64,000 nt of DNA, taken from Escherichia phage EC.W14-3. The translations under genes and the position numbers were made by a program. Shown here in pieces: positions 6 through 54,475 of this stretch (within the stretch, counting starts at the first letter, position 1; every line of letters starts with the position of its first letter). The stretch is from the sequence record PP496998.1. The stretch is one strand, 5' to 3'. Under the pieces are notes generated by a model. The model saw nothing but the letters and a program-made list of their open reading frames with translations, searched no databases and had not been told where the DNA came from.

Positions 6-227
6 TTGAACCATCTCCACGCTGGGTGGGCAGACGCAGGGTTTAATAGCAGTAAGCTGACATTTGAATTCCATAACGTAACCAAGCATCATAGCTTACG
101 AGTTCGTGCTGGTATGCGTGTTGGTCAGATGGTTATGTTTGAGCACTCTCATGCAGGGGAGCACTCCTATGCAGTGAAGGGTCGTTATAATAACTCTGAA
201 GGTGTAGTTGCATCTAAAGGTGTGTAA
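6..227 (+). CDS. hypothetical protein (frame open to window start; may begin upstream)
   Basis: ORF track 73 aa; C-terminus loosely resembles the three downstream 65-69 aa paralogs. Confidence 0.3.
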   Translation: MNHLHAGWADAGFNSSKLTFEFHNVTKHHSLRVRAGMRVGQMVMFEHSHAGEHSYAVKGRYNNSEGVVASKGV

Positions 228-915: not shown

Positions 916-1245
916 ATGTTAGATTTGAGTAAAGTGGCCCCGCCCACTGAAGAGATTACAAAATCCAAGGTGATGCAACAGTTTTATCATCGTGATATGC
1001 TTGGTCGCTTTATCAAGAATCGTGATGTTGTTGCTTGGTCTATTGGTAATCAGGGATATCTGTTGAAGGTTCTTCAGGTTACAGGCTCAACTGCTAAGCG
1101 AGTTAAGGTGTATGACCCTGAAATGGGGCGTTCTAAGTCAGTAGACCCACAGAACTGCATCGTAATTACCCAGCAGGTAATGGATAATATTGCACGTAAC
1201 GTTGCTAACTCAGTTGAACTTGATGGAGAAAACCCAAATGCATAA
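916..1245 (+). CDS. hypothetical protein
   Basis: 109 aa ORF; GGAG RBS (acaggagagagttATG). Confidence 0.5.
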   Translation: MLDLSKVAPPTEEITKSKVMQQFYHRDMLGRFIKNRDVVAWSIGNQGYLLKVLQVTGSTAKRVKVYDPEMGRSKSVDPQNCIVITQQVMDNIARNVANSVELDGENPNA

Positions 1246-1801
1246 GAATGTTTTTGATTTACCTGAGATTGGTCGTGACAGTTATAGTATGTTAGACCGG
1301 TCTGATCTTTCAATCTCTCGCCTTGAAACAATGCAAGGCATGATTAGTGCAAACAGCCTAGAACACATCCTGAGCTGCTTACAAGCTAACATGGAACTAT
1401 TGCATATCAAAGCTAAAAACTACCACTGGAACGTCTCTGGTGCAGGATTTCAGGGTGTCCATGGTATGTTTGATGAGCTGGAAGATTACGCACGACAGGT
1501 AGGAGATCGTATTGCTGAACGTATGCGTTACCACTGTGTTAAAGTGGATGCTACAGCAGCTAATTATCTTTCTCATGCTTGGTTCTCAGAGGGGAATGCT
1601 GATCTAGACATGGACGGTATGCTCTCTGATATGTGCATGACCTTGATGTGTATTATTGAGAAGATGGATGAGTTTGATGGTGATTTAGCCTCCCACCCTG
1701 TCGATCAGAGTATGCTTCAAGAAATTAATGAAGGTCTTGGCAAGTATTGCTACTTCGTCAAGAGCAACATGTCCCATTCAAGTGGTGACGTGTCTTACTA
1801 A
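1238..1801 (+). CDS. Dps-like ferritin-family protein
   Basis: KNYHWNVSGAGFQGVHGMFDELEDYARQVGDRIAERMR matches Dps ferroxidase-region signature (HWN..G..F...H..F); start set at ATG 1238 overlapping upstream stop. Confidence 0.7.
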   Translation: MHKNVFDLPEIGRDSYSMLDRSDLSISRLETMQGMISANSLEHILSCLQANMELLHIKAKNYHWNVSGAGFQGVHGMFDELEDYARQVGDRIAERMRYHCVKVDATAANYLSHAWFSEGNADLDMDGMLSDMCMTLMCIIEKMDEFDGDLASHPVDQSMLQEINEGLGKYCYFVKSNMSHSSGDVSY

Positions 1802-1861
1802 AACCTCCGCCCTGTCTCCTAACCCGAGGTGGGGCGAACTTATTTATAAGGATATAGATAT

Positions 1862-2041
1862 ATGTTATCAGCAATCGTATGGGGTATTTGGGCTATCTTT
1901 ATTGGTGGTGGTATTTATTGGGCTTCTGGTAAGCTTATTGAAGAAACTCCTGATAAGAAAGGTGAAATTCAAACAGCATCAACCATCATGGTTATTGTAG
2001 CTGTTGTTATCCCGTTCCTACTTCACCTCCTGACTGCATAA
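1862..2041 (+). CDS. small membrane protein (59 aa, two hydrophobic segments)
   Basis: ATG after AGGA RBS; MLSAIVWGIWAIFIGGG...IMVIVAVVIPFLL; below the track length cutoff; preferred over overlapping track ORF 1728-2000. Confidence 0.3.
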   Translation: MLSAIVWGIWAIFIGGGIYWASGKLIEETPDKKGEIQTASTIMVIVAVVIPFLLHLLTA

Positions 2042-2049
2042 GGATTTAC

Positions 2050-2325
2050 ATGTCTAAAGTAATTAAGTTTTATAGCGATCAGTGTGCTCCATGTAAAGCA
2101 ATGGCTCCTACCTTTGAGAAGGTTGTTAAGGAGTTTGATGTAGAAGTGGAAGAGATTAACATCCTTGAAGGTGATGGTCGTGAACAAGCTGTTAAGTATG
2201 GTGTACGAAGTATCCCTGCTTTCGTTGTGCCTGACCGTAACAGTGGTGCGCACTACAGCCTCTCCGGTATGCAGACTGAAGCAAACCTGAAAGCATTTTT
2301 GGACACAGCCCTGAGAAATAAGTAA
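2050..2325 (+). CDS. thioredoxin-like protein
   Basis: CAPC active-site CxxC in thioredoxin context (FYSDQCAPCKAMAP), downstream cis-Pro region VRSIPAFVV. Confidence 0.75.
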   Translation: MSKVIKFYSDQCAPCKAMAPTFEKVVKEFDVEVEEINILEGDGREQAVKYGVRSIPAFVVPDRNSGAHYSLSGMQTEANLKAFLDTALRNK

Positions 2326-2340
2326 TAAGGATATTCACGG

Positions 2341-2997
2341 ATGAATGAACAACTACAAGCAACATTAATCGAAGCTATGGGAAGTGATCGTAGCGTAGTA
2401 AACGCAGCTCGAGTTTCCTTTGGCGTAACCCGTGAAGGTGATTTAAATGAACGTGATGAACGTCTCATCAACTTTCTCGCAAGAGAGAAGCATGTTACCC
2501 CATTCCGACACCCGCAAGTCAGTTTCCGATGCAAAGCACCTATCGCAATTGCGAGACAGCTGGGCAAGCATCAGGTTGGATTCTCGTGGAACGAAATGTC
2601 CCGGCGGTATAAAGATGGAGCAGTTGAAGTCTTCATCCCTAAAGAGATTTTTGCGAGACCTTCGGACCTCCATGCAGGTTCAGGGATTCAACTCATCGAC
2701 GGAGAGCGAGCTGAAGCATTAATGCTGATTAATGATGCATATGAAGCTTCTCTAGCAGCATATGACAAGTTGATTGAATTTATTGCACCAGAGCAGGCTC
2801 GATTTGTTCTTCCTCAGGGGATGATCACTGAGTGGGTGTGGACTGGTTCTTTGTATGGCTGGTTTGAGTTGTGCCGTCAGCGACTCTCCTCTCACGCTCA
2901 ATATGAAGTTCGAGTGTTTGCTAAATCTCTAGATGAAGAGATGGCTAAACTCTACCCAATCTCGTGGGCAGCTCTGAAGAAAACTTTGGAGAGTTAA
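2341..2997 (+). CDS. thyX: ThyX-like FAD-dependent thymidylate synthase family protein (variant signature)
   Basis: APIAIARQLGKHQVGFSWNEMSRRY aligns to ThyX [23 protein letters not shown]; canonical RHR replaced by KHQ. Confidence 0.65.
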   Translation: MNEQLQATLIEAMGSDRSVVNAARVSFGVTREGDLNERDERLINFLAREKHVTPFRHPQVSFRCKAPIAIARQLGKHQVGFSWNEMSRRYKDGAVEVFIPKEIFARPSDLHAGSGIQLIDGERAEALMLINDAYEASLAAYDKLIEFIAPEQARFVLPQGMITEWVWTGSLYGWFELCRQRLSSHAQYEVRVFAKSLDEEMAKLYPISWAALKKTLES

Positions 2998-2998
2998 A

Positions 2999-3247
2999 AT
3001 GGCTAGTAAAAGTATTTGGATTCTGAGTCGTGTTGAAGAGACAGACAGAGGGGAGTACACAGAAGTGCTTTGCTCTTTCATTACATACCCCACAAAACAA
3101 CAGCTTGAAGATGCTGGAGTAGAAATAAATCTTTCTCAATCTCTTTTTGATAAAAAGGTTTCCAAGTCAACAGCCCCATTCTTTGGTTATTACTACACAC
3201 TTGATAGTTTGGAGCTACTGATGAATGATTCTTGTTTGGAGAATTAA
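2999..3247 (+). CDS. hypothetical protein
   Basis: 82 aa ORF immediately after thyX-like gene. Confidence 0.4.
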   Translation: MASKSIWILSRVEETDRGEYTEVLCSFITYPTKQQLEDAGVEINLSQSLFDKKVSKSTAPFFGYYYTLDSLELLMNDSCLEN

Positions 3248-3381
3248 TGTTGGAAGAAGATGACGATGTGTTCTGCACCAAGTGTGGGATGACAGTTGAT
3301 GATGCATATGACCCAAGTGTAGAAATTTGTCCATGTTGCAGAGTATGTGAATATTGCTGTTCCCACAACTCAGAGGATTAG
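3247..3381 (+). CDS. small Cys-rich protein (44 aa, zinc-ribbon-like)
   Basis: CTKCG...CPCCRVCEYCC; ATG overlaps upstream stop; not in ORF track (short). Confidence 0.25.
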   Translation: MLEEDDDVFCTKCGMTVDDAYDPSVEICPCCRVCEYCCSHNSED

Positions 3382-3393
3382 CAGGAATTCCTT

Positions 3394-3627
3394 ATGAAGA
3401 TAAAACATATTACAGATATTCAGGAGGCATTTAGAATGCTTCCTCGAAGAGAGAAAGATAAGATTAAGAAGCTTATTCAAGTCTATGGTCATACATCTGA
3501 AGGTGATGTAGATTATATGCCTGCCACTTTTAGAGAATGCGGAATTGCTCGTAATTTCACATTTGATCATAAAGTATTTCAGCAATTCGTTGACCACTGG
3601 AGAAAAGATGGAAAAGAAAGTCTGTAG
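3394..3627 (+). CDS. hypothetical protein
   Basis: 77 aa ORF. Confidence 0.35.
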   Translation: MKIKHITDIQEAFRMLPRREKDKIKKLIQVYGHTSEGDVDYMPATFRECGIARNFTFDHKVFQQFVDHWRKDGKESL

Positions 3628-3793
3628 CTTCTGTAATAAAGAGAAGACTGTCGCCAACTTTAAACCTAATCCTGTAACTGGTCTGACCCATGTCATGTGC
3701 CACTCTTGCAGGATATATCTTGAAACAAAACACACTATCAATAGATTGCATTATTATCACCCAACAACATTCAAATTTAAGGTTGTGAAATGA
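3608..3793 (+). CDS. small zinc-ribbon protein
   Basis: MEKKVCSFCNKEK...MCHSCRIY, two CxxC pairs; internal ATG of track ORF 3545-3793. Confidence 0.35.
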   Translation: MEKKVCSFCNKEKTVANFKPNPVTGLTHVMCHSCRIYLETKHTINRLHYYHPTTFKFKVVK

Positions 3794-4119
3794 TTGACAG
3801 TAATACATTTAGGACTTCAAATGGAAGTGAAATAAGTCCCGCTGAAGTAATCAATCGGCATAGAAGGCAATTGATCATCCATTCCTATTTGTATTACTGG
3901 TTGGATGACCCTATCTGGTCTGATGATAAATGGCAACAAGTTGCTAATGATCTAGTGGAGCTGCAAGCTCTGTATCCAGAGCCTACCGGAGTCTTTGACA
4001 GTGAGTTCAAAGATTGGGATGGTTCTACAGGGATGCACCTCCCACACAATGAGACTGTTGCTTGTATGGCGACAGCTGTTTACAGGATTCATAAAGATAT
4101 GAACCATGAAGTGCTCTAG
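3790..4119 (+). CDS. hypothetical protein
   Basis: 109 aa ORF, start overlaps upstream stop. Confidence 0.45.
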   Translation: MIDSNTFRTSNGSEISPAEVINRHRRQLIIHSYLYYWLDDPIWSDDKWQQVANDLVELQALYPEPTGVFDSEFKDWDGSTGMHLPHNETVACMATAVYRIHKDMNHEVL

Positions 4120-48592: not shown

Positions 48593-48621
48593 TTGACAGG
48601 TTTTTCCTTTATTATATAGTT
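48593..48621 (+). promoter_or_regulatory. sigma-70-type promoter
   Basis: TTGACA, 16-nt spacer, TATAGT; about 45 nt upstream of ATG 48665. Confidence 0.55.
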
Positions 48622-49561: not shown

Positions 49562-49825
49562 ATGGCTATCAAAGAAATTAAGTTATCTAATGGCTTTTCT
49601 TGTTTTGTTGGTGGAAGCTCTATCCTGTTTAATACACTTGATGGTCAGATAACGTTACCTGTTATCACTTTTTGCAGGATGGAATATCAGCCTCTTAAAG
49701 ATTGGCTAGCCTTTGCTGATTTTGAAATTACCCGTGAAGACTTCAAATCAATCTATATTGACGGTGATTTATCACTGGCTAACCTGCTCAATCATGGACT
49801 AATTAAGGGTGATATTAATGGGTAA
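49562..49825 (+). CDS. hypothetical protein
   Basis: 87 aa; RBS GGGAG. Confidence 0.45.
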   Translation: MAIKEIKLSNGFSCFVGGSSILFNTLDGQITLPVITFCRMEYQPLKDWLAFADFEITREDFKSIYIDGDLSLANLLNHGLIKGDING

Positions 49826-50072: not shown

Positions 50073-50176
50073 TGATTCATGATTATTTTTGGCGTTGCTT
50101 GTTCGTTGTTACAGTGGCGTTATTCGTCGCTGATATGCTTTATTCTTATATTCTCTAACTATAGGTGATTATTATC

Positions 50177-50542
50177 ATGGGTATTATCAAATTTGTAGTA
50201 AAAGTATTCGTGGGCTTCTTCCTTGTCGTTCTCCTGCTGGGTGTGCTCCTATCGGCTATGGGTAGCGTTAAGGCTGCAACATTCTCCCCTGCTACGGTGG
50301 AAGGTTTACAGTGCACCTATTTGATAGAAAATTATGATACCGGTAAAAAGTCACCTAAAGTTATTATTTTGCATGTAAATGATTTCGATCATGTGCAATC
50401 AGATAGTAAAACTATTCTACTGGTAAATGAAACTACTGGTAAACAAATCACGGTCGATCACTTGATGCGCTCATCGTTAACGCTCTTTGATGAGTCCATG
50501 AATGAAATGGCATCCGGTAATGGTCAATGTGTAAATCCATAG
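50177..50542 (+). CDS. membrane protein (N-terminal TM/signal anchor)
   Basis: MGIIKFVVKVFVGFFLVVLLLGVLL; RBS AGGTGA 8 nt before ATG. Confidence 0.5.
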   Translation: MGIIKFVVKVFVGFFLVVLLLGVLLSAMGSVKAATFSPATVEGLQCTYLIENYDTGKKSPKVIILHVNDFDHVQSDSKTILLVNETTGKQITVDHLMRSSLTLFDESMNEMASGNGQCVNP

Positions 50543-50619
50543 GCTTAATCTTTCTCCTGTATTGTGCCGTAGTCATGCCTATGGTCATAATTTATCTGAT
50601 GCTTTAAATCCTTCCTGTA

Positions 50620-50646
50620 AGCCTCCTAGTGAGGCTTTTCTCTTTT
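50620..50646 (+). terminator. rho-independent terminator
   Basis: agcctc-ctagt-gaggct hairpin followed by TTTTCTCTTTT. Confidence 0.65.
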
Positions 50647-50846
50647 ATGAGGTGATTGTATGCCTTACTCCCTTTTAGCTCGTTGTGGTGCGTTACAGGC
50701 CGCTTATTATTGCTTTACAAGCCGTTTTCTATGATGTATCACGCGCCCCCGCTCTTTTACCTCCTGATTTCTTCCGGTGTCCTACCGACAATAAAATAAA
50801 TTCCTTTATAAAACAGTGAGATGAAAAATAATTTGAAAAAAGGGTA

Positions 50847-50874
50847 TTGACATGATTTTCCTTTATAGTAATAT
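50847..50874 (+). promoter_or_regulatory. strong sigma-70 promoter P1 with A-rich UP-like element
   Basis: aaaaaagggtaTTGACA, 16-nt spacer, TAATAT. Confidence 0.65.
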
Positions 50875-51003
50875 GAATCCCGTAGTAAGCAGTAAGTAAC
50901 AACAAGTAGTAAAAACTCCTCGATAGGTGATTAGCATCACGGTAAAAGGCTTCAACGGGGAGCGGTAGGAATACCGACAGTAAGACGCACAATGAAGGTG
51001 CTA

Positions 51004-51016
51004 CGCTCTTTAAAAA
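51004..51016 (+). promoter_or_regulatory. BoxA-like antitermination motif (copy a)
   Basis: CGCTCTTTAAAAA vs rrn BoxA TGCTCTTTAACAA and lambda nutL CGCTCTTAAAAA. Confidence 0.5.
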
Positions 51017-51052
51017 TCAGGCTAGAAAGTGAAAATATTCTTAAAAAGAGTA

Positions 51053-51081
51053 TTGACACCGAAAACAGCCTGATTCATAAT
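51053..51081 (+). promoter_or_regulatory. strong sigma-70 promoter P2
   Basis: aaaaagagtaTTGACA, 17-nt spacer, CATAAT. Confidence 0.7.
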
Positions 51082-51113
51082 AAGCACTCAGTCAGCGATG
51101 ACTTAAAAAATCC

Positions 51114-51126
51114 CGCTCTTTAAAAA
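51114..51126 (+). promoter_or_regulatory. BoxA-like antitermination motif (copy b)
   Basis: CGCTCTTTAAAAA about 35 nt downstream of P2 -10. Confidence 0.5.
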
Positions 51127-51200
51127 CTTATCATCTTGCCTTTTCGCATAGATTCACGCGAGATAAGGGAAAAGAATAAAAGAAGATGATAAAAAAGAGA

Positions 51201-51229
51201 TTGACAAGCTAACACGATGTGTTAAGCTG
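51201..51229 (+). promoter_or_regulatory. sigma-70 promoter P3 (weaker -10)
   Basis: aaaaaagagaTTGACA, 16-17-nt spacer, TAAGCT. Confidence 0.45.
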
Positions 51230-51241
51230 TAAATGCTACAC

Positions 51242-51254
51242 CGCTCTTTAACAA
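51242..51254 (+). promoter_or_regulatory. BoxA-like antitermination motif (copy c, best match)
   Basis: CGCTCTTTAACAA = rrn BoxA with first T replaced by C; followed by hairpin TTAAGC-atcacc-GCTTAA. Confidence 0.55.
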
Positions 51255-51355
51255 TATGAATCATAAGTTAAGCATCACCGCTTAATCTTCAATCAAATAA
51301 AGCTGATTGATATATCCTCCCAATAGCGGGAACGACGAAAAAGATTAAAAAGTGG

Positions 51356-51384
51356 TTGACAGCGAAAACAACATGATTCATAAT
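51356..51384 (+). promoter_or_regulatory. strong sigma-70 promoter P4
   Basis: aaaaagtggTTGACA, 17-nt spacer, CATAAT. Confidence 0.7.
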
Positions 51385-51474
51385 GAGCACTCACTAAGCA
51401 AATCACCGCTTCAGTGAAAAGCGTAACAACGGCTAACAGTTGCATAGTGTGAGAAAGCACACTGATAGATTTAC

Positions 51475-51487
51475 CGCTCTTTAATAA
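51475..51487 (+). promoter_or_regulatory. BoxA-like antitermination motif (copy d)
   Basis: CGCTCTTTAATAA about 90 nt downstream of P4. Confidence 0.5.
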
Positions 51488-51489
51488 TT

Positions 51490-52305
51490 TAAACATTCTC
51501 CTATATCGGTTGAATATGTTAGATGATAATAACCATCGGATAACATACCAGATAAAACGGTGTAAGATTCTCTAAACTATCAGAGAAAACAATCTTATAA
51601 TCCCTTGCTGGAAACGTCACCACTGATAAACGGATTCATTGAGTGTACGCAAAGATTTAAGCTAATCGCCCACGGTTAAGGGTAGCGGCGGTCATCGCTA
51701 ACAAGGCGCTACAGTGAAAGAAGTTAATCAGGGTAGGCAAGCCCGAAGAATTAACGCTCAATTGAGAGCGGCGGGGAGTGGTTAAAAAGTGGCAAATTGC
51801 TATTTAACAATAAGGTTTAGTGTGAACGTTTACGATGTGAATGATTTGAGGCCACTATTGATGGCGTACATAGTCAGTTTATGTAGTAAACTTGCCGAAA
51901 GATATAAAACGTCAGAACATTAGACGGTCAATGACTCTTTCACAATAGCATCCCGTTGTGGGCGATGGCTAGTGATTGAGAGTTGATACAAAAGGATAGG
52001 CGAGAGCGAAAGCAAAGTAGACGATATTGCCGACGGTTACAATAAACGTAACTAATTAGAGTCGGACGCACTGCCTTATTGTGATGATTGATCATCGCTA
52101 TCAGGTCGGCTTCGTTTATAGCGACTAATTAAAGATACCAGATGAAACATCACGGATAAGGGGGCGGCAAGGTTAACTCCTGATAAGACCGCCCCGCTTA
52201 CCTATAACTACTTAACAACGAGTGGTTATAGTTAAGTTAATAGTGACTTAAACAAGCTCATAGAGAGCGGGGCAATAGCGCCCTTACAAGTGAAAGGTGA
52301 ATATC
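51490..52305 (+). other. ORF-free transcribed leader / candidate structured non-coding RNA
   Basis: about 0.8 kb with stops in all frames (longest ORF about 20 codons), repeated CACGGnTAAGGG and GAGCGGCGGGGAG blocks, hairpin agggggcgg...ccgcccc. Confidence 0.4.
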
Positions 52306-53205
52306 ATGGCTAAAATCTTTACTCTGGTTAACGAATCCGGTTTTAATGCTCTGGCTAACAACATTCGCAGTAATAACGCGGCGATCAAACAAGATGTTTC
52401 TAACTTCCTGTTAGGGCACTTACAGCACTTCCGCAGTAATGGTAAGAAGCTGGACGTATTGCAGTCGGCGGTTGACTTTCTGTTAACTGAACGTTTCCGT
52501 GATATGGATGTTATTGCCACTGCAATTACTTTCTTAACTCCTATCAAGTTTAACACCGATGCGGCAAATGGTCGTAAAAAGTGGATTAATCTGGAAGGTG
52601 AGGCGAAAGCTAAAGAAGACGCGAAAGAAGCGCAAATTAAAACCAAAATGGAACAAAACCGCGCTCGCTGGTCAAATGCTTTCGAGAATTTTGCTTTAGG
52701 CCGTGAAATTGAAGTTGATAATCCTAACTTTTACAAGGGTTGCAATGACAACGTGGCGGCACACCTGCAAATCCCGGCGAAAAACAAGGAAGATTTTAAT
52801 CAGGATATTTACGCTTTAGTTGAACGCTTGAATGCAATCCGTATTGAAGCCAAATTATTGGCTGATGAGCGCAATGGTGCTACCAGCGATAACACTATCG
52901 CCTTAAGTGAAGAAGTGGGCAAAGTTAAGAAGTCATTCGACTCGCTCATCAAGAAAGTCACGGCCTCAACGGTAGCGATCTCTGATAACTACCTGATGAA
53001 CGCATCAAGCAAGGAATTAGAATCACTCGATTCATACGCTGATGAAATGGAAAAGACTGTTGCAGCTATGCAGGAGAAGTTAGAAAGTCTGCGCGGTCGT
53101 ATCTCTTCAACGGTTGCTACCCGTACCGAACAAGCTGCGAAAGCAGAAGAGGAAGAAGTATTGCGTAAAGCGGCTGAAATTATGGCGGCACGTCAAGCGG
53201 CATAA
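52306..53205 (+). CDS. hypothetical protein (first gene after promoter/BoxA array)
   Basis: 299 aa from ATG 52306 with GGTG RBS; host-like codon usage; helical, Ala/Lys/Glu-rich C-terminus. Confidence 0.55.
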   Translation: MAKIFTLVNESGFNALANNIRSNNAAIKQDVSNFLLGHLQHFRSNGKKLDVLQSAVDFLLTERFRDMDVIATAITFLTPIKFNTDAANGRKKWINLEGEAKAKEDAKEAQIKTKMEQNRARWSNAFENFALGREIEVDNPNFYKGCNDNVAAHLQIPAKNKEDFNQDIYALVERLNAIRIEAKLLADERNGATSDNTIALSEEVGKVKKSFDSLIKKVTASTVAISDNYLMNASSKELESLDSYADEMEKTVAAMQEKLESLRGRISSTVATRTEQAAKAEEEEVLRKAAEIMAARQAA

Positions 53206-53229
53206 GTAAGACAATTTAAATAAACATAA

Positions 53230-53262
53230 GGTGCTATCTTAACGGGTAGCGCCTTTTCTTTT
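53230..53262 (+). terminator. rho-independent terminator
   Basis: ggtgctatc-ttaacg-ggtagcgcc hairpin followed by TTTTCTTTTAT. Confidence 0.6.
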
Positions 53263-53307
53263 ATCAGTGCATTGATTCAGTGCATTAATCAAAGAATTTA
53301 ATCAAAG

Positions 53308-54031: not shown

Positions 54032-54475
54032 GTGGCTAAATCTAAAATCAGCATGAAGGGCGGGCGTTGTTTTTCTATATCTGAACTGGAGAAAGAGAAT
54101 CCAAAGGCAACCAATCACGTCAGCAAGCGTAGTTTAAAACGTCGTGCTGCAAAGGCTGAAGCTGAATCCCATATCCCTTCTAGTGTGGCAAAACGTGTAG
54201 GCCATCGTGTCCATCGTGCTGATGCGTTATTGTTAGCCGATCATAAACGTTCTTTGTTAAAGAGCGGGGGAGCAAAAACAGAAGAGGAGAAGAAGTTAGA
54301 AATCTTCTGTAATGGTCGCACCCGTGGTAAACAGAAGTTTAAGGGTAGCACGAAAGACCCGCAGGCTTTTCCTAAGACAAGCCAGTGCGCACCTGATGTT
54401 TTCTACGCAGACAGTAAACACAAGTGGGGCGTTGAAAAATACATTGATCCCATCAAAGAGGCGAGGGTAAAATGA
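54032..54475 (+). CDS. basic protein (possible nucleic-acid binding)
   Basis: 147 aa, Lys/Arg-rich; GTG start after AAGG RBS. Confidence 0.45.
   Translation: MAKSKISMKGGRCFSISELEKENPKATNHVSKRSLKRRAAKAEAESHIPSSVAKRVGHRVHRADALLLADHKRSLLKSGGAKTEEEKKLEIFCNGRTRGKQKFKGSTKDPQAFPKTSQCAPDVFYADSKHKWGVEKYIDPIKEARVK

Follow-up and report, generated by a model that had tools for sequence, protein, structure and literature searches.

A candidate rRNA-operon-like module in phiEco32-like coliphages: tandem early promoters, repeated boxA-type sequences and a large structured leader RNA

BoxA-dependent modification of RNA polymerase by Nus factors is textbook material for rRNA operons and for the lambdoid phages that carry N, and the lambda element begins CGCUCUU. 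The rrn-type Nus complex chiefly counteracts Rho and merely lowers intrinsic termination in vitro. For its loading on rrn RNA, SuhB relies in part on boxC, which in rrnB (TGTGTGGG) lies 24 nt past boxA, and on the linker that joins the two boxes. The phiEco32 phage is virulent, makes use of its own sigma factor (gp36) later in infection and has a dedicated shut-off protein (gp79); Salmonella phage 7-11, its closest studied relative, was stated to need an undefined antitermination mechanism. We know of no N-like gene in phiEco32-like phages and, to our knowledge, a stand-alone boxA had not been described in a virulent, N-less coliphage. At cellular loci, stand-alone boxA elements of the same consensus precede unusually long untranslated would-be Rho targets: CRISPR arrays, long and untranslated, are shielded from Rho by boxA (Stringer et al., 2020), and a further element is found at suhB (Baniulyte et al., 2017).

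The window analyzed here is a stretch of 64,000 nucleotides from a phiEco32-like coliphage (Kuravirus), Escherichia phage EC.W14-3 (PP496998.1). In a long spacer with homologs of phiEco32 genes 125 and 124 on either side, TTGACA promoters and exact CGCTCTTTAA motifs, four of each, lie on the strand of the early transcripts. The 5′ limit of this promoter-boxA-leader module is an intrinsic terminator (50619..50647, + strand; hairpin AAGCCTCCTAGTGAGGCTT then a T-run) that ends the upstream early operon (homologs of genes 128-125) and is annotated at the equivalent place in SU10, SU7 and 4E8. The gene 124 homolog (52306..53205, + strand; 299 aa), which always lies directly 3′ of the leader, is preceded by the Shine-Dalgarno region GAAAGGTGAATATC (52292..52305, + strand) and followed shortly by a terminator-like hairpin and T-run (53228..53265, + strand), annotated at the equivalent place in SU7 and 4E8. 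The gene 124 protein has no match in Pfam, and its AlphaFold model (pLDDT 76), helical with a long C-terminal helix, has no fold match in the PDB.

Among described systems, the E. coli rrn leader resembles this locus in its strong sigma-70 promoters, which stand in tandem behind A-rich upstream regions, in a hairpin followed by boxA, in a boxA plus linker identical over up to 16 nt (GCTCTTTAACAATTTA), and in its product, a long RNA that is untranslated, highly structured and closed by long-range helices. However, the phage has no boxC, repeats boxA after each of three to five promoters, separates hairpin and boxA by 7-13 nt (2-3 nt in rrn) and makes an RNA that is unlike rRNA or any E. coli sequence and leads into a protein gene. 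As at lambda nutL and nutR, a host-type boxA stands in a phage early leader shortly past the early promoters, but the order of hairpin and boxA is the reverse of that in lambda, and the phage elements have the full rrn UUUAA core where lambda has the weaker UUAA or UUAC. The CRISPR and suhB elements are single copies at cellular loci, in contrast to the several copies, very strong promoters and structured RNA of the phage. The A1-A2-A3 promoters of T7 are likewise tandem, strong, read by the host polymerase and placed near a genome end ahead of the early genes of a virulent podophage. T7 early RNA is translated almost immediately, and we know of no boxA elements or long structured leader in T7.

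Promoters and boxA-type sequences

On the + strand TTGACA occurs at 50847, 51053, 51201 and 51356, four times in 515 nt, against approximately 0.14 occurrences expected locally from the background of 34 in 128 kb (both strands). Judged against the sigma-70 arrangement (−35 TTGACA, TATAAT-like −10, spacing of 16-18 nt), P1 (50847..50874, + strand; TTGACA-16-TAATAT), P2 (51053..51081, + strand; TTGACA-17-CATAAT) and P4 (51356..51384, + strand; TTGACA-17-CATAAT) score 10-11/12. P3 (51201..51228, + strand; TTGACA-16-TAAGCT) combines a perfect −35 with an extended −10, TGT standing before the hexamer. A reading made from the letters of this DNA alone (hereafter the sequence-only reading) had described four tandem TTGACA promoters with A-rich upstream tracts, and all four were located, each with its tract. 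Its general −10 formula, (C/T)A(T/A)AAT, does not fit P3, a site that reads TTGACA-16-TAGAAT in EK010, SU7, PAS59, MLP3 and TH34. P2 and P4 are paralogous (86% identity over 44 nt), P4 is fixed at approximately −950 from the gene 124 ATG in 24/24 phages, and P1 is kept in phiEco32, SU10, TH06, Paul, EK010 and EP335. The promoters are not new: P2-P4 were already predicted in the SU10 paper (the −10 of P3 being uncertain there), in which P1 is absent from the Table S2 list, and an early transcription unit under tandem sigma-70 promoters, as the sequence-only reading supposed, was already known for phiEco32 and SU10.

The same reading had noted a 13-mer after each promoter, and all four copies are exact on the + strand: copy a (CGCTCTTTAAAAA; 51004..51016) at approximately +122 from the inferred P1 start, copy b (again CGCTCTTTAAAAA; 51114..51126) at approximately +26 from that of P2, copy c (CGCTCTTTAACAA; 51242..51254) within approximately 10 nt of that of P3, and copy d (CGCTCTTTAATAA then TTTA; 51475..51487) at approximately +84 from that of P4. 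All are thus on the sense strand, 7 to approximately 122 nt past an inferred start. Each is a perfect match to the gamma-proteobacterial consensus GYTCTTTAANA. About 0.1 exact copies of the CGCTCTTTAA motif would be expected by chance, and the 64 kb contain just one more, at 54257 on the − strand. As RNA the copies read (C/A/U)GCUCUUU, with positions 2-8 equal to E. coli rrn, and sequence comparison finds the 8-nt core contacted by NusB-S10 present, with the critical G2, C5 and U6 intact. Copy c agrees with rrnB TGCTCTTTAACAA at 12/13 positions, a match stated in the sequence-only reading and checked on MG1655. Variants of copy d with C read GCTCTTTAACAATTTA and are identical to the rrnB leader over those 16 nt, the extended form GCTCTTTAANAAT(TTA) is the same in the rrnB leader, and an nhmmer profile of the phage leader matches rrnB at the boxA d site only. 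Neither the consensus fold nor any of six single-sequence folds pairs the core CUCUUUAANAAU; in some folds pairing touches the 5′ flank only.

The sequence-only reading had looked to related phages for a check, and the motif is retained in them. Together, 24 phages hold 100 copies, every one on the + strand and alternating with promoters, and the core does not vary among them; 73 unique sequence contexts surround this one core of 12-13 nt. Copies c (at approximately −1065 from the gene 124 ATG) and d (approximately −830) are fixed in position and present in 24/24 phages although their flanks vary. The number of copies per phage ranges from 3 to 5 through duplication of the module, and the motif is always retained. 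It is also invariant in distant relatives with a gene 124 protein 47-70% identical, and survives in lineages at about 50-60% leader nucleotide identity. A possible fifth copy, CCGCTCTTTTACC (50748..50761, + strand), does exist, but it has 2 mismatches to GYTCTTTAANA, lies upstream of P1 and occurs in only 8/23 GenBank relatives; it is probably a decayed copy or a chance match. An internal control is provided by the upstream early promoter at 48593, which is a comparable promoter, has a 5′ UTR of approximately 40 nt and is followed by no boxA.

Two hairpins stand between P4 and copy d. The first and smaller (helix 2, CAAC...GTTG; 51427..51442, + strand) has a single compensatory change, with C-G replacing A-U in 3 phages. 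The second, boxB-like and directly 5′ of boxA (helix 3, AGTGTG-AGAAAG-CACACT; 51446..51463, + strand), ends 11 nt before copy d, covaries at 3/6 pairs and has a near-invariant loop. Distant relatives have an equivalent hairpin at this place with a different stem sequence, and every lineage has a hairpin with covarying stems and an A-rich loop 7-13 nt ahead of its last boxA. The order boxB then boxA is common to the copy d site and E. coli rrnB. A lambda-type nut site was considered and rejected, as the hairpin precedes boxA and the sequence 3′ of copy d runs into long-range helix 5. Nothing similar to a GU-rich, UGUGUGGG-like boxC was found 3′ of any phage boxA copy. Between copy b and P3 a long inverted repeat (TTATCATCTT ... 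AAGATGATAA; 51128..51193, + strand) was read from the sequence; it is near-invariant across six diverse phages including TH34 and offers no variation with which to test pairing. Because the 13-mer matches the consensus perfectly, is invariant even in deep relatives, lies on the sense strand past promoters and follows a boxB-like hairpin, it is, in terms of its sequence, a bona fide boxA-type element.

A structured leader RNA and its distribution

The leader ahead of gene 124 is a large structured RNA with conserved base-pairing on the + strand. Its consensus fold (RNAalifold and covariation) has 240 predicted pairs in 41 helices; pairing extends to 99.1% of the alignment cells (34-46% in slid controls), and compensatory changes occur in 79 pairs (9-14 in these controls). 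None of 500 shuffles attained the observed values. G-U cells number 615 and A-C cells 21, and the minimum-free-energy z-score is −7.6 on the + strand vs. −3.9 on the − strand. The sequence-only reading had allowed that the leader could carry a structured RNA and had proposed a comparative alignment in related phages; the alignment yields a covariation-supported fold and strongly confirms the suggestion.

Domain I (51488..51786, + strand), from the RNAalifold consensus and covariation, holds helices 6-19 inside a long-range closing helix, helix 5. It is followed by hairpin helix 20 (51787..51805, + strand), the most conserved stretch of the leader, which holds a paired boxA-like GCTATTTAACAA. 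Domain II (51807..52082, + strand), also supported by covariation, has helices 21-23 as its closing stems and holds helices 25-33, of which 25, 26, 28 and 30 are rich in compensatory changes. The 3′ hairpin series (helices 34-41; 52083..52284, + strand) is the best conserved part in distant relatives and includes a conserved single-stranded stretch of 34 nt (52127-52160, + strand). Helix 4, a pairing of the 5′ flank of boxA d with the gene 124 Shine-Dalgarno, is invariant in Kuravirus and lost in distant relatives, and was dropped.

The leader is conserved at the level of gene 124 but has no codon periodicity: variable columns fall by phase as 130/145/124, vs. 83/53/251 in gene 124. It had been described as free of ORFs longer than about 20 codons, which is not literally true, as a GTG ORF of 44 aa lies at 51789-51923 and ORFs on the − strand reach 67 aa; none of these is conserved in all phages, and no + strand ORF of at least 30 aa is common to them. 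These patterns speak against translation of the region, an outcome that the sequence-only reading had considered.

The proposed Rfam-type scan returned no family at gathering or permissive thresholds. In the window, Rfam 15 (including GOLLD, ROOL, riboswitches and ribozymes) matched a tRNA-Arg only, and the best hit of a permissive scan of 50500-52400 had E = 1.2. GOLLD, ROOL, OLE and HEARO are in a comparable size class (approximately 0.6-0.9 kb), with multi-domain, covariation-supported folds and phage association. The leader differs from them in having no Rfam match and in being joined to a downstream gene and to boxA-bearing promoters. In composition it is not conspicuously C-rich or G-poor, much of it being G-rich and paired. 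A CsrB-like sponge for CsrA was rejected on the depletion of GGA (7 observed vs. 16.4 ± 3.5 expected), and a host origin because a blastn search of 5,426 E. coli genomes returned no match.

The leader occurs at full length in 97/97 relatives, and its range is the phiEco32-like coliphages and their metagenomic relatives. A metagenome scan with a conserved 22-mer added 8 Kuravirus-like contigs and returned 3 unrelated AT-rich contigs sharing only the 23-mer. In IMG/VR scans for tandem boxA motifs, most of the non-Kuravirus matches that were checked arose artefactually from repeats, either perfect tandem ones or coding ones (among them P1201, iterons and the fibre gene of a jumbo phage). Two further IMG/VR loci with tandem boxA (L056 and L058) may be genuine. 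The distant relative 7-11 has an ORF-poor leader of approximately 1 kb before its first early gene, in which neither a boxA consensus nor similarity to the Kuravirus leader was found and whose fold z-score is only −3.0. Its gp151 was considered as a gene 124 counterpart and is not homologous.

What might the module do?

We favor, on balance, the reading of this module as an rRNA-operon-like expression unit for a large structured phage RNA. During infection E. coli sigma-70 RNA polymerase would initiate at P1-P4, tandem and near-consensus as they are, and each transcript would soon hold at least one host-type boxA (GCUCUUUAANAAU), the last of them behind a boxB-like hairpin as in rrn leaders. 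Binding of boxA by NusB-S10 would nucleate a NusA/NusG/SuhB complex on the elongating polymerase, which would become fast and Rho-resistant, and may also aid long-range RNA folding. It would then complete an untranslated RNA of approximately 830 nt, with two closed domains of approximately 300 nt and the 3′ hairpin series, and read into gene 124, possibly beyond the gene 124 terminator. We infer Nus-factor binding, Rho resistance and an RNA function beyond that of a 5′ UTR from sequence and structure.

Why would such a complex be needed? The sequence-only reading saw boxA as a means of passing many intrinsic terminators in the early region. Terminator-like sites are mildly enriched (10 found vs. 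5.5 ± 2.6 expected), which agrees weakly with this, but the rrn-type Nus complex is mainly directed against Rho. Protection of more than 0.8 kb of untranslated RNA from Rho is the more economical rationale; the upstream early operon, with a short UTR (approximately 40 nt) and a comparable promoter, has no boxA. Several points count against the rRNA-operon-like reading or its Rho-protection version: no boxC-like element follows boxA, the 7-11 leader has no boxA consensus, and the leader, G-rich and paired, may be a poor Rho substrate anyway. Copies a-c would also look redundant if antitermination were their only role, because copy d alone would serve the transcripts of all four promoters.

A bolder proposal, which we put forward tentatively and hold to be possible rather than probable, is that the leader belongs to a new class of phage non-coding RNA of approximately 0.85-0.9 kb, made from a pseudo-ribosomal-RNA operon. 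Copied host rRNA signals (tandem promoters, boxB-like hairpin, boxA) would let the phage mass-produce the RNA and fold it co-transcriptionally. Early in infection it would then work in trans, perhaps by scaffolding an RNP with the protein of the ever-adjacent gene 124, perhaps by soaking up Nus factors or other host RNA-binding proteins.

A more conventional view, to which we give a distinctly smaller chance, is that the leader only serves gene 124 as a long regulatory 5′ UTR, switching translation or stability, with boxA used as at suhB for Nus-dependent control of that gene. Leader and gene 124 are always directly joined, no terminator intervening and a terminator-like hairpin following the gene, and the Shine-Dalgarno can pair with the flank of boxA d in the Kuravirus consensus fold. 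That pairing, however, is invariant within Kuravirus and missing in distant relatives. Moreover, approximately 40 helices and two closed 300-nt domains are far beyond what known UTR switches need, and boxA sites of the suhB type lie within approximately 50 nt of the start codon, not at 830-930 nt as here.

Slightly less plausible still, and rather unlikely overall, is a Nus-factor decoy. An abundant early RNA with three to five boxA elements would titrate NusB, S10 or SuhB off the host rrn operons and so contribute to host shut-off, instead of or alongside modification of the polymerase that made it. Over-expressed boxA RNA reportedly competes for NusB in E. coli. The near-consensus tandem promoters would suit such a role, as would the variation of the array between 3 and 5 copies with the motif never lost and the invariance of copies a-c, redundant for antitermination yet unchanged at the core in every phage. 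But duplicated promoter-plus-boxA modules would equally give one boxA per promoter, nothing in the sequence tells a decoy from a cis-acting signal, and phiEco32 already has gp79 for shut-off.

Could the spacer instead act as DNA, as a replication origin or protein-binding region? In that case the repeats would serve as iterons or as sites upstream of promoters, and replication would be primed or activated by the transcription that the tandem promoters drive (cf. the T7 primary origin and ColE1 RNA II). A long non-coding region with tandem promoters and repeated short motifs invites this view, copy a lies a fixed 47-49 nt upstream of the −35 hexamer of a P2-type promoter, and iteron-like arrays elsewhere can hold the same 11-mer by chance (L042). 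We nevertheless regard it as very unlikely. The copies are non-palindromic and all on one strand; from copies b and c the next promoter is 87 and 114 nt away and copy d has none, which leaves no general promoter-upstream geometry. The motif equals a host RNA signal well past its core, the base-pairing constraint on the + strand (615 G-U vs. 21 A-C cells) is not predicted by a function of duplex DNA, and cumulative GC skew turns with gene orientation at approximately 48 kb and 18 kb, outside the spacer. Least credible of all is that the motif merely hitch-hikes on recent duplication of promoter repeat units and has no function of its own, for although P2/P4 and the module of a-type boxA plus P2 are clear paralogous repeats, and in P1201 amplification alone has placed the same 11-mer in perfect tandem repeats, the copies at this locus keep an unchanged core between diverged flanks, copies c and d stand outside recognizable repeats, and the motif outlasts the divergence of the leader described above.

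In the literature covered, no published description of the phage boxA array or of the structured leader was found. Repetition of boxA after each of several tandem early promoters would also be new. Structured RNAs near 1 kb that are supported by covariation are rare. Several GenBank records place small ORFs within the leader RNA, annotations that call for correction. PhiEco32 is a model for phage transcription strategy through its sigma factor and gp79, and the leader RNA occurs in coliphages that are easy to grow, some of them from the Bas collection, which makes genetics and structural work feasible at once.

The spacer and its tandem promoters

The region at 50700-52305 of the window is a long spacer flanked by homologs of phiEco32 genes 125 and 124 (hereafter gene 125 and gene 124). 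It has a 100% match in Escherichia phages EC.W2-6 and EC.W8-1, and ~95 other phiEco32-like phages match it at 75-97% (Gordonclarkvirinae: Kuravirus, Suseptimavirus, Nieuwekanaalvirus). The early genes lie on the plus strand, starting at ~48.6 kb, and the late block occupies the minus strand from 18 to 48 kb, as judged by GC skew and ORF orientation. Two small early proteins, of 125 aa (50165-50542) and 87 aa (49562-49825), are labelled "terminase" and "polymerase" in many records and in PHROGs; these labels look like propagated mis-annotation, since they have no Pfam support and the proteins are far below the size for such functions.

TTGACA is depleted genome-wide (34 copies in 128 kb, both strands, vs 50 in shuffles), and four plus-strand copies fall within 515 nt of the spacer. 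A sequence-only reading had claimed four tandem sigma-70 promoters here. All four TTGACA sites stand, as do P1 (50847, TTGACA-16-TAATAT), P2 (51053, TTGACA-17-CATAAT) and P4 (51356, TTGACA-17-CATAAT), but P3 (51201) joins a perfect -35 to the -10 TAAGCT after TGT; its site reads TTGACA-16-TAGAAT in EK010, SU7, PAS59, MLP3 and TH34. The transcription starts of P1-P4 are all inferred from sequence. P2 and P4 are paralogous, sharing 86% identity across 44 nt, and a promoter at ~-950 from gene 124 is kept in 24/24 phages. The tandem promoters are already known, since the paper on phage SU10 describes a spacer with three sigma-70 promoters and a first early operon preceded by one, with the same arrangement in phiEco32, and its Table S2 gives the sequences of P2, P3 (-10 doubtful) and P4.

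The boxA array

The 13-mers proposed as BoxA are present exactly (CGCTCTTTAA) at 51004, 51114, 51242 and 51475 (boxA a to d), and 4/4 match GYTCTTTAANA, the published boxA consensus of gamma-proteobacteria. A suggested fifth copy at 50748 is present but degenerate and poorly conserved. Elsewhere in the 64 kb, CGCTCTTTAA has a single exact copy, at 54257 on the minus strand. The perfect consensus GCTCTTTAACAA at 54255-54265, minus strand, lies opposite the early genes within a 147-aa ORF (54032-54475); it recurs at the corresponding site of six relatives (Paul, pEC-N1203, O18-011, NJ01, EcoN5, IMEP8) and is probably a coding coincidence.

When the window and 23 GenBank relatives were scanned over the 2.3 kb that precede the gene-124 homolog, 100 matches emerged, 3-5 per phage, all on the plus strand and interleaved with promoters, with none elsewhere on the plus strand of the 24 scanned loci. 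Copies at ~-830 and ~-1065 occur in 24/24 phages. The motif alone is weak evidence because the 11-mer can arise by chance in amplified repeats, as a tandem-boxA scan of IMG/VR found. The case for boxA rests instead on conserved position, strand and context and on an extended rrn match. Across 73 distinct contexts the core is constant while the flanks vary, and constancy reaches past the search pattern to GCTCTTTAANAAT. In MG1655 the rrnB leader has the sequence GCCGC-loop-GCGGC AC TGCTCTTTAACAATTTATC, and variants of copy d have 16 consecutive bases in common with it; a whole-leader nhmmer profile matches the rrnB leader at boxA only. NusB-S10 recognises eight nucleotides, of which G2, C5 and U6 are critical, and at positions 2-8 no phage copy departs from rrn. 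Judged by sequence, the repeated motif is boxA.

A boxB-like 6-bp hairpin (51446-51463, loop AGAAAG) lies 11 nt upstream of boxA d, with compensatory changes in 3/6 pairs. The order, hairpin then boxA, is that of E. coli rrn (boxB, boxA) and not that of lambda nut. No boxC-like GU-rich element follows the phage boxA, and the site therefore falls short of a full rrn nut.

Promoter-boxA modules number 3 to 5 per relative through gain and loss of ~110-nt and ~219-nt units. At 51127 the window is without ~185 nt that in phiEco32 (3400-3590 of locus L001), SU10, TH06, Paul and EK010 sit between boxA b and a conserved inverted repeat. This repeat (51128-51193, TTATCATCTT ... AAGATGATAA, GC-rich inner stem) sits between boxA b and P3 and is near-invariant in six diverse phages including TH34, exceeding the conservation of its surroundings. 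In one sub-lineage (SU7, L006 2166-2366; PAS59, L007 2207-2407; MLP3, L021 2208-2408) the spacer contains, in its upstream part, an inserted ORF of 66 aa, whose start codon follows a highly rrn-like boxA, TTGCTCTTTAATAATT, at a distance of ~60 nt.

Four distant relatives, Logan contigs L064, L065, L067 and L069, were located via the gene-124 protein (47-70% amino-acid identity). All have TTGACA promoters interleaved with perfect boxA, the last 901-936 nt before the gene and preceded by a hairpin ending 7-13 nt ahead of it, whose stem is quite different and whose loop is A- or purine-rich. Upstream of the gene-124 homolog these contigs have ~3 kb without called genes (~950-4000), exceeding the Kuravirus spacer; promoters, boxA and leader are confined to the last 1.0-1.5 kb.

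An unrelated 180-kb phage contig in IMG/VR (L058 10010-10460; L056 9067-9202) has a consensus TTGACA-17-TATAAT promoter and then 2-3 perfect boxA just upstream of a same-strand tRNA block (24 tRNAs in 14 kb), which suggests that boxA there shields an array of phage tRNAs, itself untranslated. Corynebacterium phage P1201 (L054 2246-2900) has seven perfect 109-bp tandem repeats, each with GAGCTCTTTAAAAAT, that carry the GenBank-annotated small genes gp13-gp17.

A structured leader RNA

Upstream of the ATG of gene 124 lies a leader of ~0.85 kb that is as conserved as the gene itself (mean pairwise identity ~0.87 vs 0.85, 24-phage alignment). Its variable columns are spread evenly over the three phases (130/145/124, vs 83/53/251 in gene 124), and 49% of its columns vary vs 84% of gene-124 third codon positions. 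The leader is non-coding. The statement that it holds no ORF longer than ~20 codons is not literally right, but no ORF there behaves like a gene. Small hypothetical proteins annotated on either strand of the promoter zone and leader (pEC-N1203-2Af.1, L012 2364-4093; Paul, L004 2529-2705; MN05, L022 2632-2802) are not conserved and are at odds with the RNA evidence.

The suggestion that the leader might carry a structured RNA is borne out by a large covarying fold. The RNAalifold consensus (window 51381-52320 and homologs) has 240 pairs in 41 helices, 79 of them with double compensatory changes, vs 9-14 when partners are slid 1-3 columns. Standard pairs fill 99.1% of 5,756 alignment cells (93.7% in column shuffles, 34-46% slid) and the covariation score is 0.242 (0.03-0.06 slid); 0/500 shuffles reached any of the observed values. 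The phages aligned are related, and one and the same alignment yielded both the covariation counts and the predicted structure; the slid-partner and strand controls are the safeguards. Cells in consensus pairs hold 615 G-U vs 21 A-C, and the fold therefore belongs to the plus strand, the sense of early transcription; folded singly, the window sequence gives z = -7.6 (plus) and -3.9 (minus). In the distant relatives (leader 50-62% nucleotide identity), 53-77% of pairs are kept on a sequence-only alignment vs 29-48% slid, and compared with the window 31-54 pairs are compensatory.

Domain I (51488-51786) is closed by helix 5, and a very conserved hairpin (51787-51805) separates it from domain II (51807-52082), closed by helices 21-23; a 3' hairpin run then extends to 52284, ahead of the Shine-Dalgarno and the ATG at 52306, all on the plus strand. 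The 12-mer ACCAGATRAAAC occurs twice on this strand (51547-51558 and 52137-52148), both copies conserved, and nowhere else in the 64 kb even with one mismatch; the second lies in a single-stranded stretch of 34 nt (52127-52160). The 12-mer could serve in protein binding or as a tertiary contact. An exact 23-mer of the most conserved leader hairpin, AAATTGCTATTTAACAATAAGGT, is common to three AT-rich metagenome contigs (L031, L032, L040) that have no further likeness to the leader, no relation to these phages and no Rfam match.

The full leader is present in 97/97 related GenBank records, matches no Rfam family and has no homolog in E. coli genomes. The leader is always fused to gene 124, and the protein of this gene can be assigned to no family and no fold. 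In a relative, Salmonella phage 7-11 (L030 8865-9917, minus strand) the first early gene, gp151, follows ~1 kb without a convincing ORF that reaches the genome end; this region folds with a z-score of -3.0, lacks a boxA consensus and does not resemble the Kuravirus leader. The 7-11 paper states that the antitermination strategy "remains to be defined".

Possible roles of the module

What could such a module do? The rrn complex opposes Rho and in vitro also reduces intrinsic termination, and boxA shields long untranslated CRISPR arrays from Rho, exactly the protection proposed for the leader. An antitermination role is plausible from sequence and is now better motivated, as a guard of long untranslated RNA against Rho instead of a means to read through intrinsic terminators. 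The other early promoter, at 48593 (TTGACA-16-TATAGT), fits as an internal control, as translation starts ~40 nt into its transcript and no boxA follows it.

The boxA copies could also act as a decoy that titrates Nus factors, which may coexist with Rho protection and would account for the keeping of copies a-c although copy d would suffice for all transcripts. A 5' UTR switch of gene 124 is possible, but the fold is out of proportion in size, and one specific prediction, pairing of the Shine-Dalgarno with the boxA flank, fails in the distant relatives. A role at the DNA level, as origin, iterons or promoter-upstream sites, fits poorly with strand-specific G-U pairing, a one-strand, non-palindromic motif and varying distances to downstream promoters. 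Pure hitch-hiking in duplicated modules is contradicted by cores that stay invariant where their flanks have diverged, and by the survival of the motif in deep relatives.

The papers searched show no co-occurrence of phiEco32 or Kuravirus with boxA, Nus factors or structured or non-coding RNA, although the two primary phiEco32 papers may discuss the spacer; the boxA array appears undescribed so far, and so, more importantly, does the ~0.85-kb covarying leader RNA. Most likely, the phage module copies the expression logic of host rRNA. Strong tandem promoters would give high initiation, boxA and the upstream hairpin would recruit NusB-S10 and then NusA, NusG and SuhB, and the modified polymerase would withstand Rho, otherwise a terminator of untranslated RNA. 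The Nus complex is also credited with assisting rRNA folding, and by pure inference it may help the leader, with its long-range closing helices, to fold.
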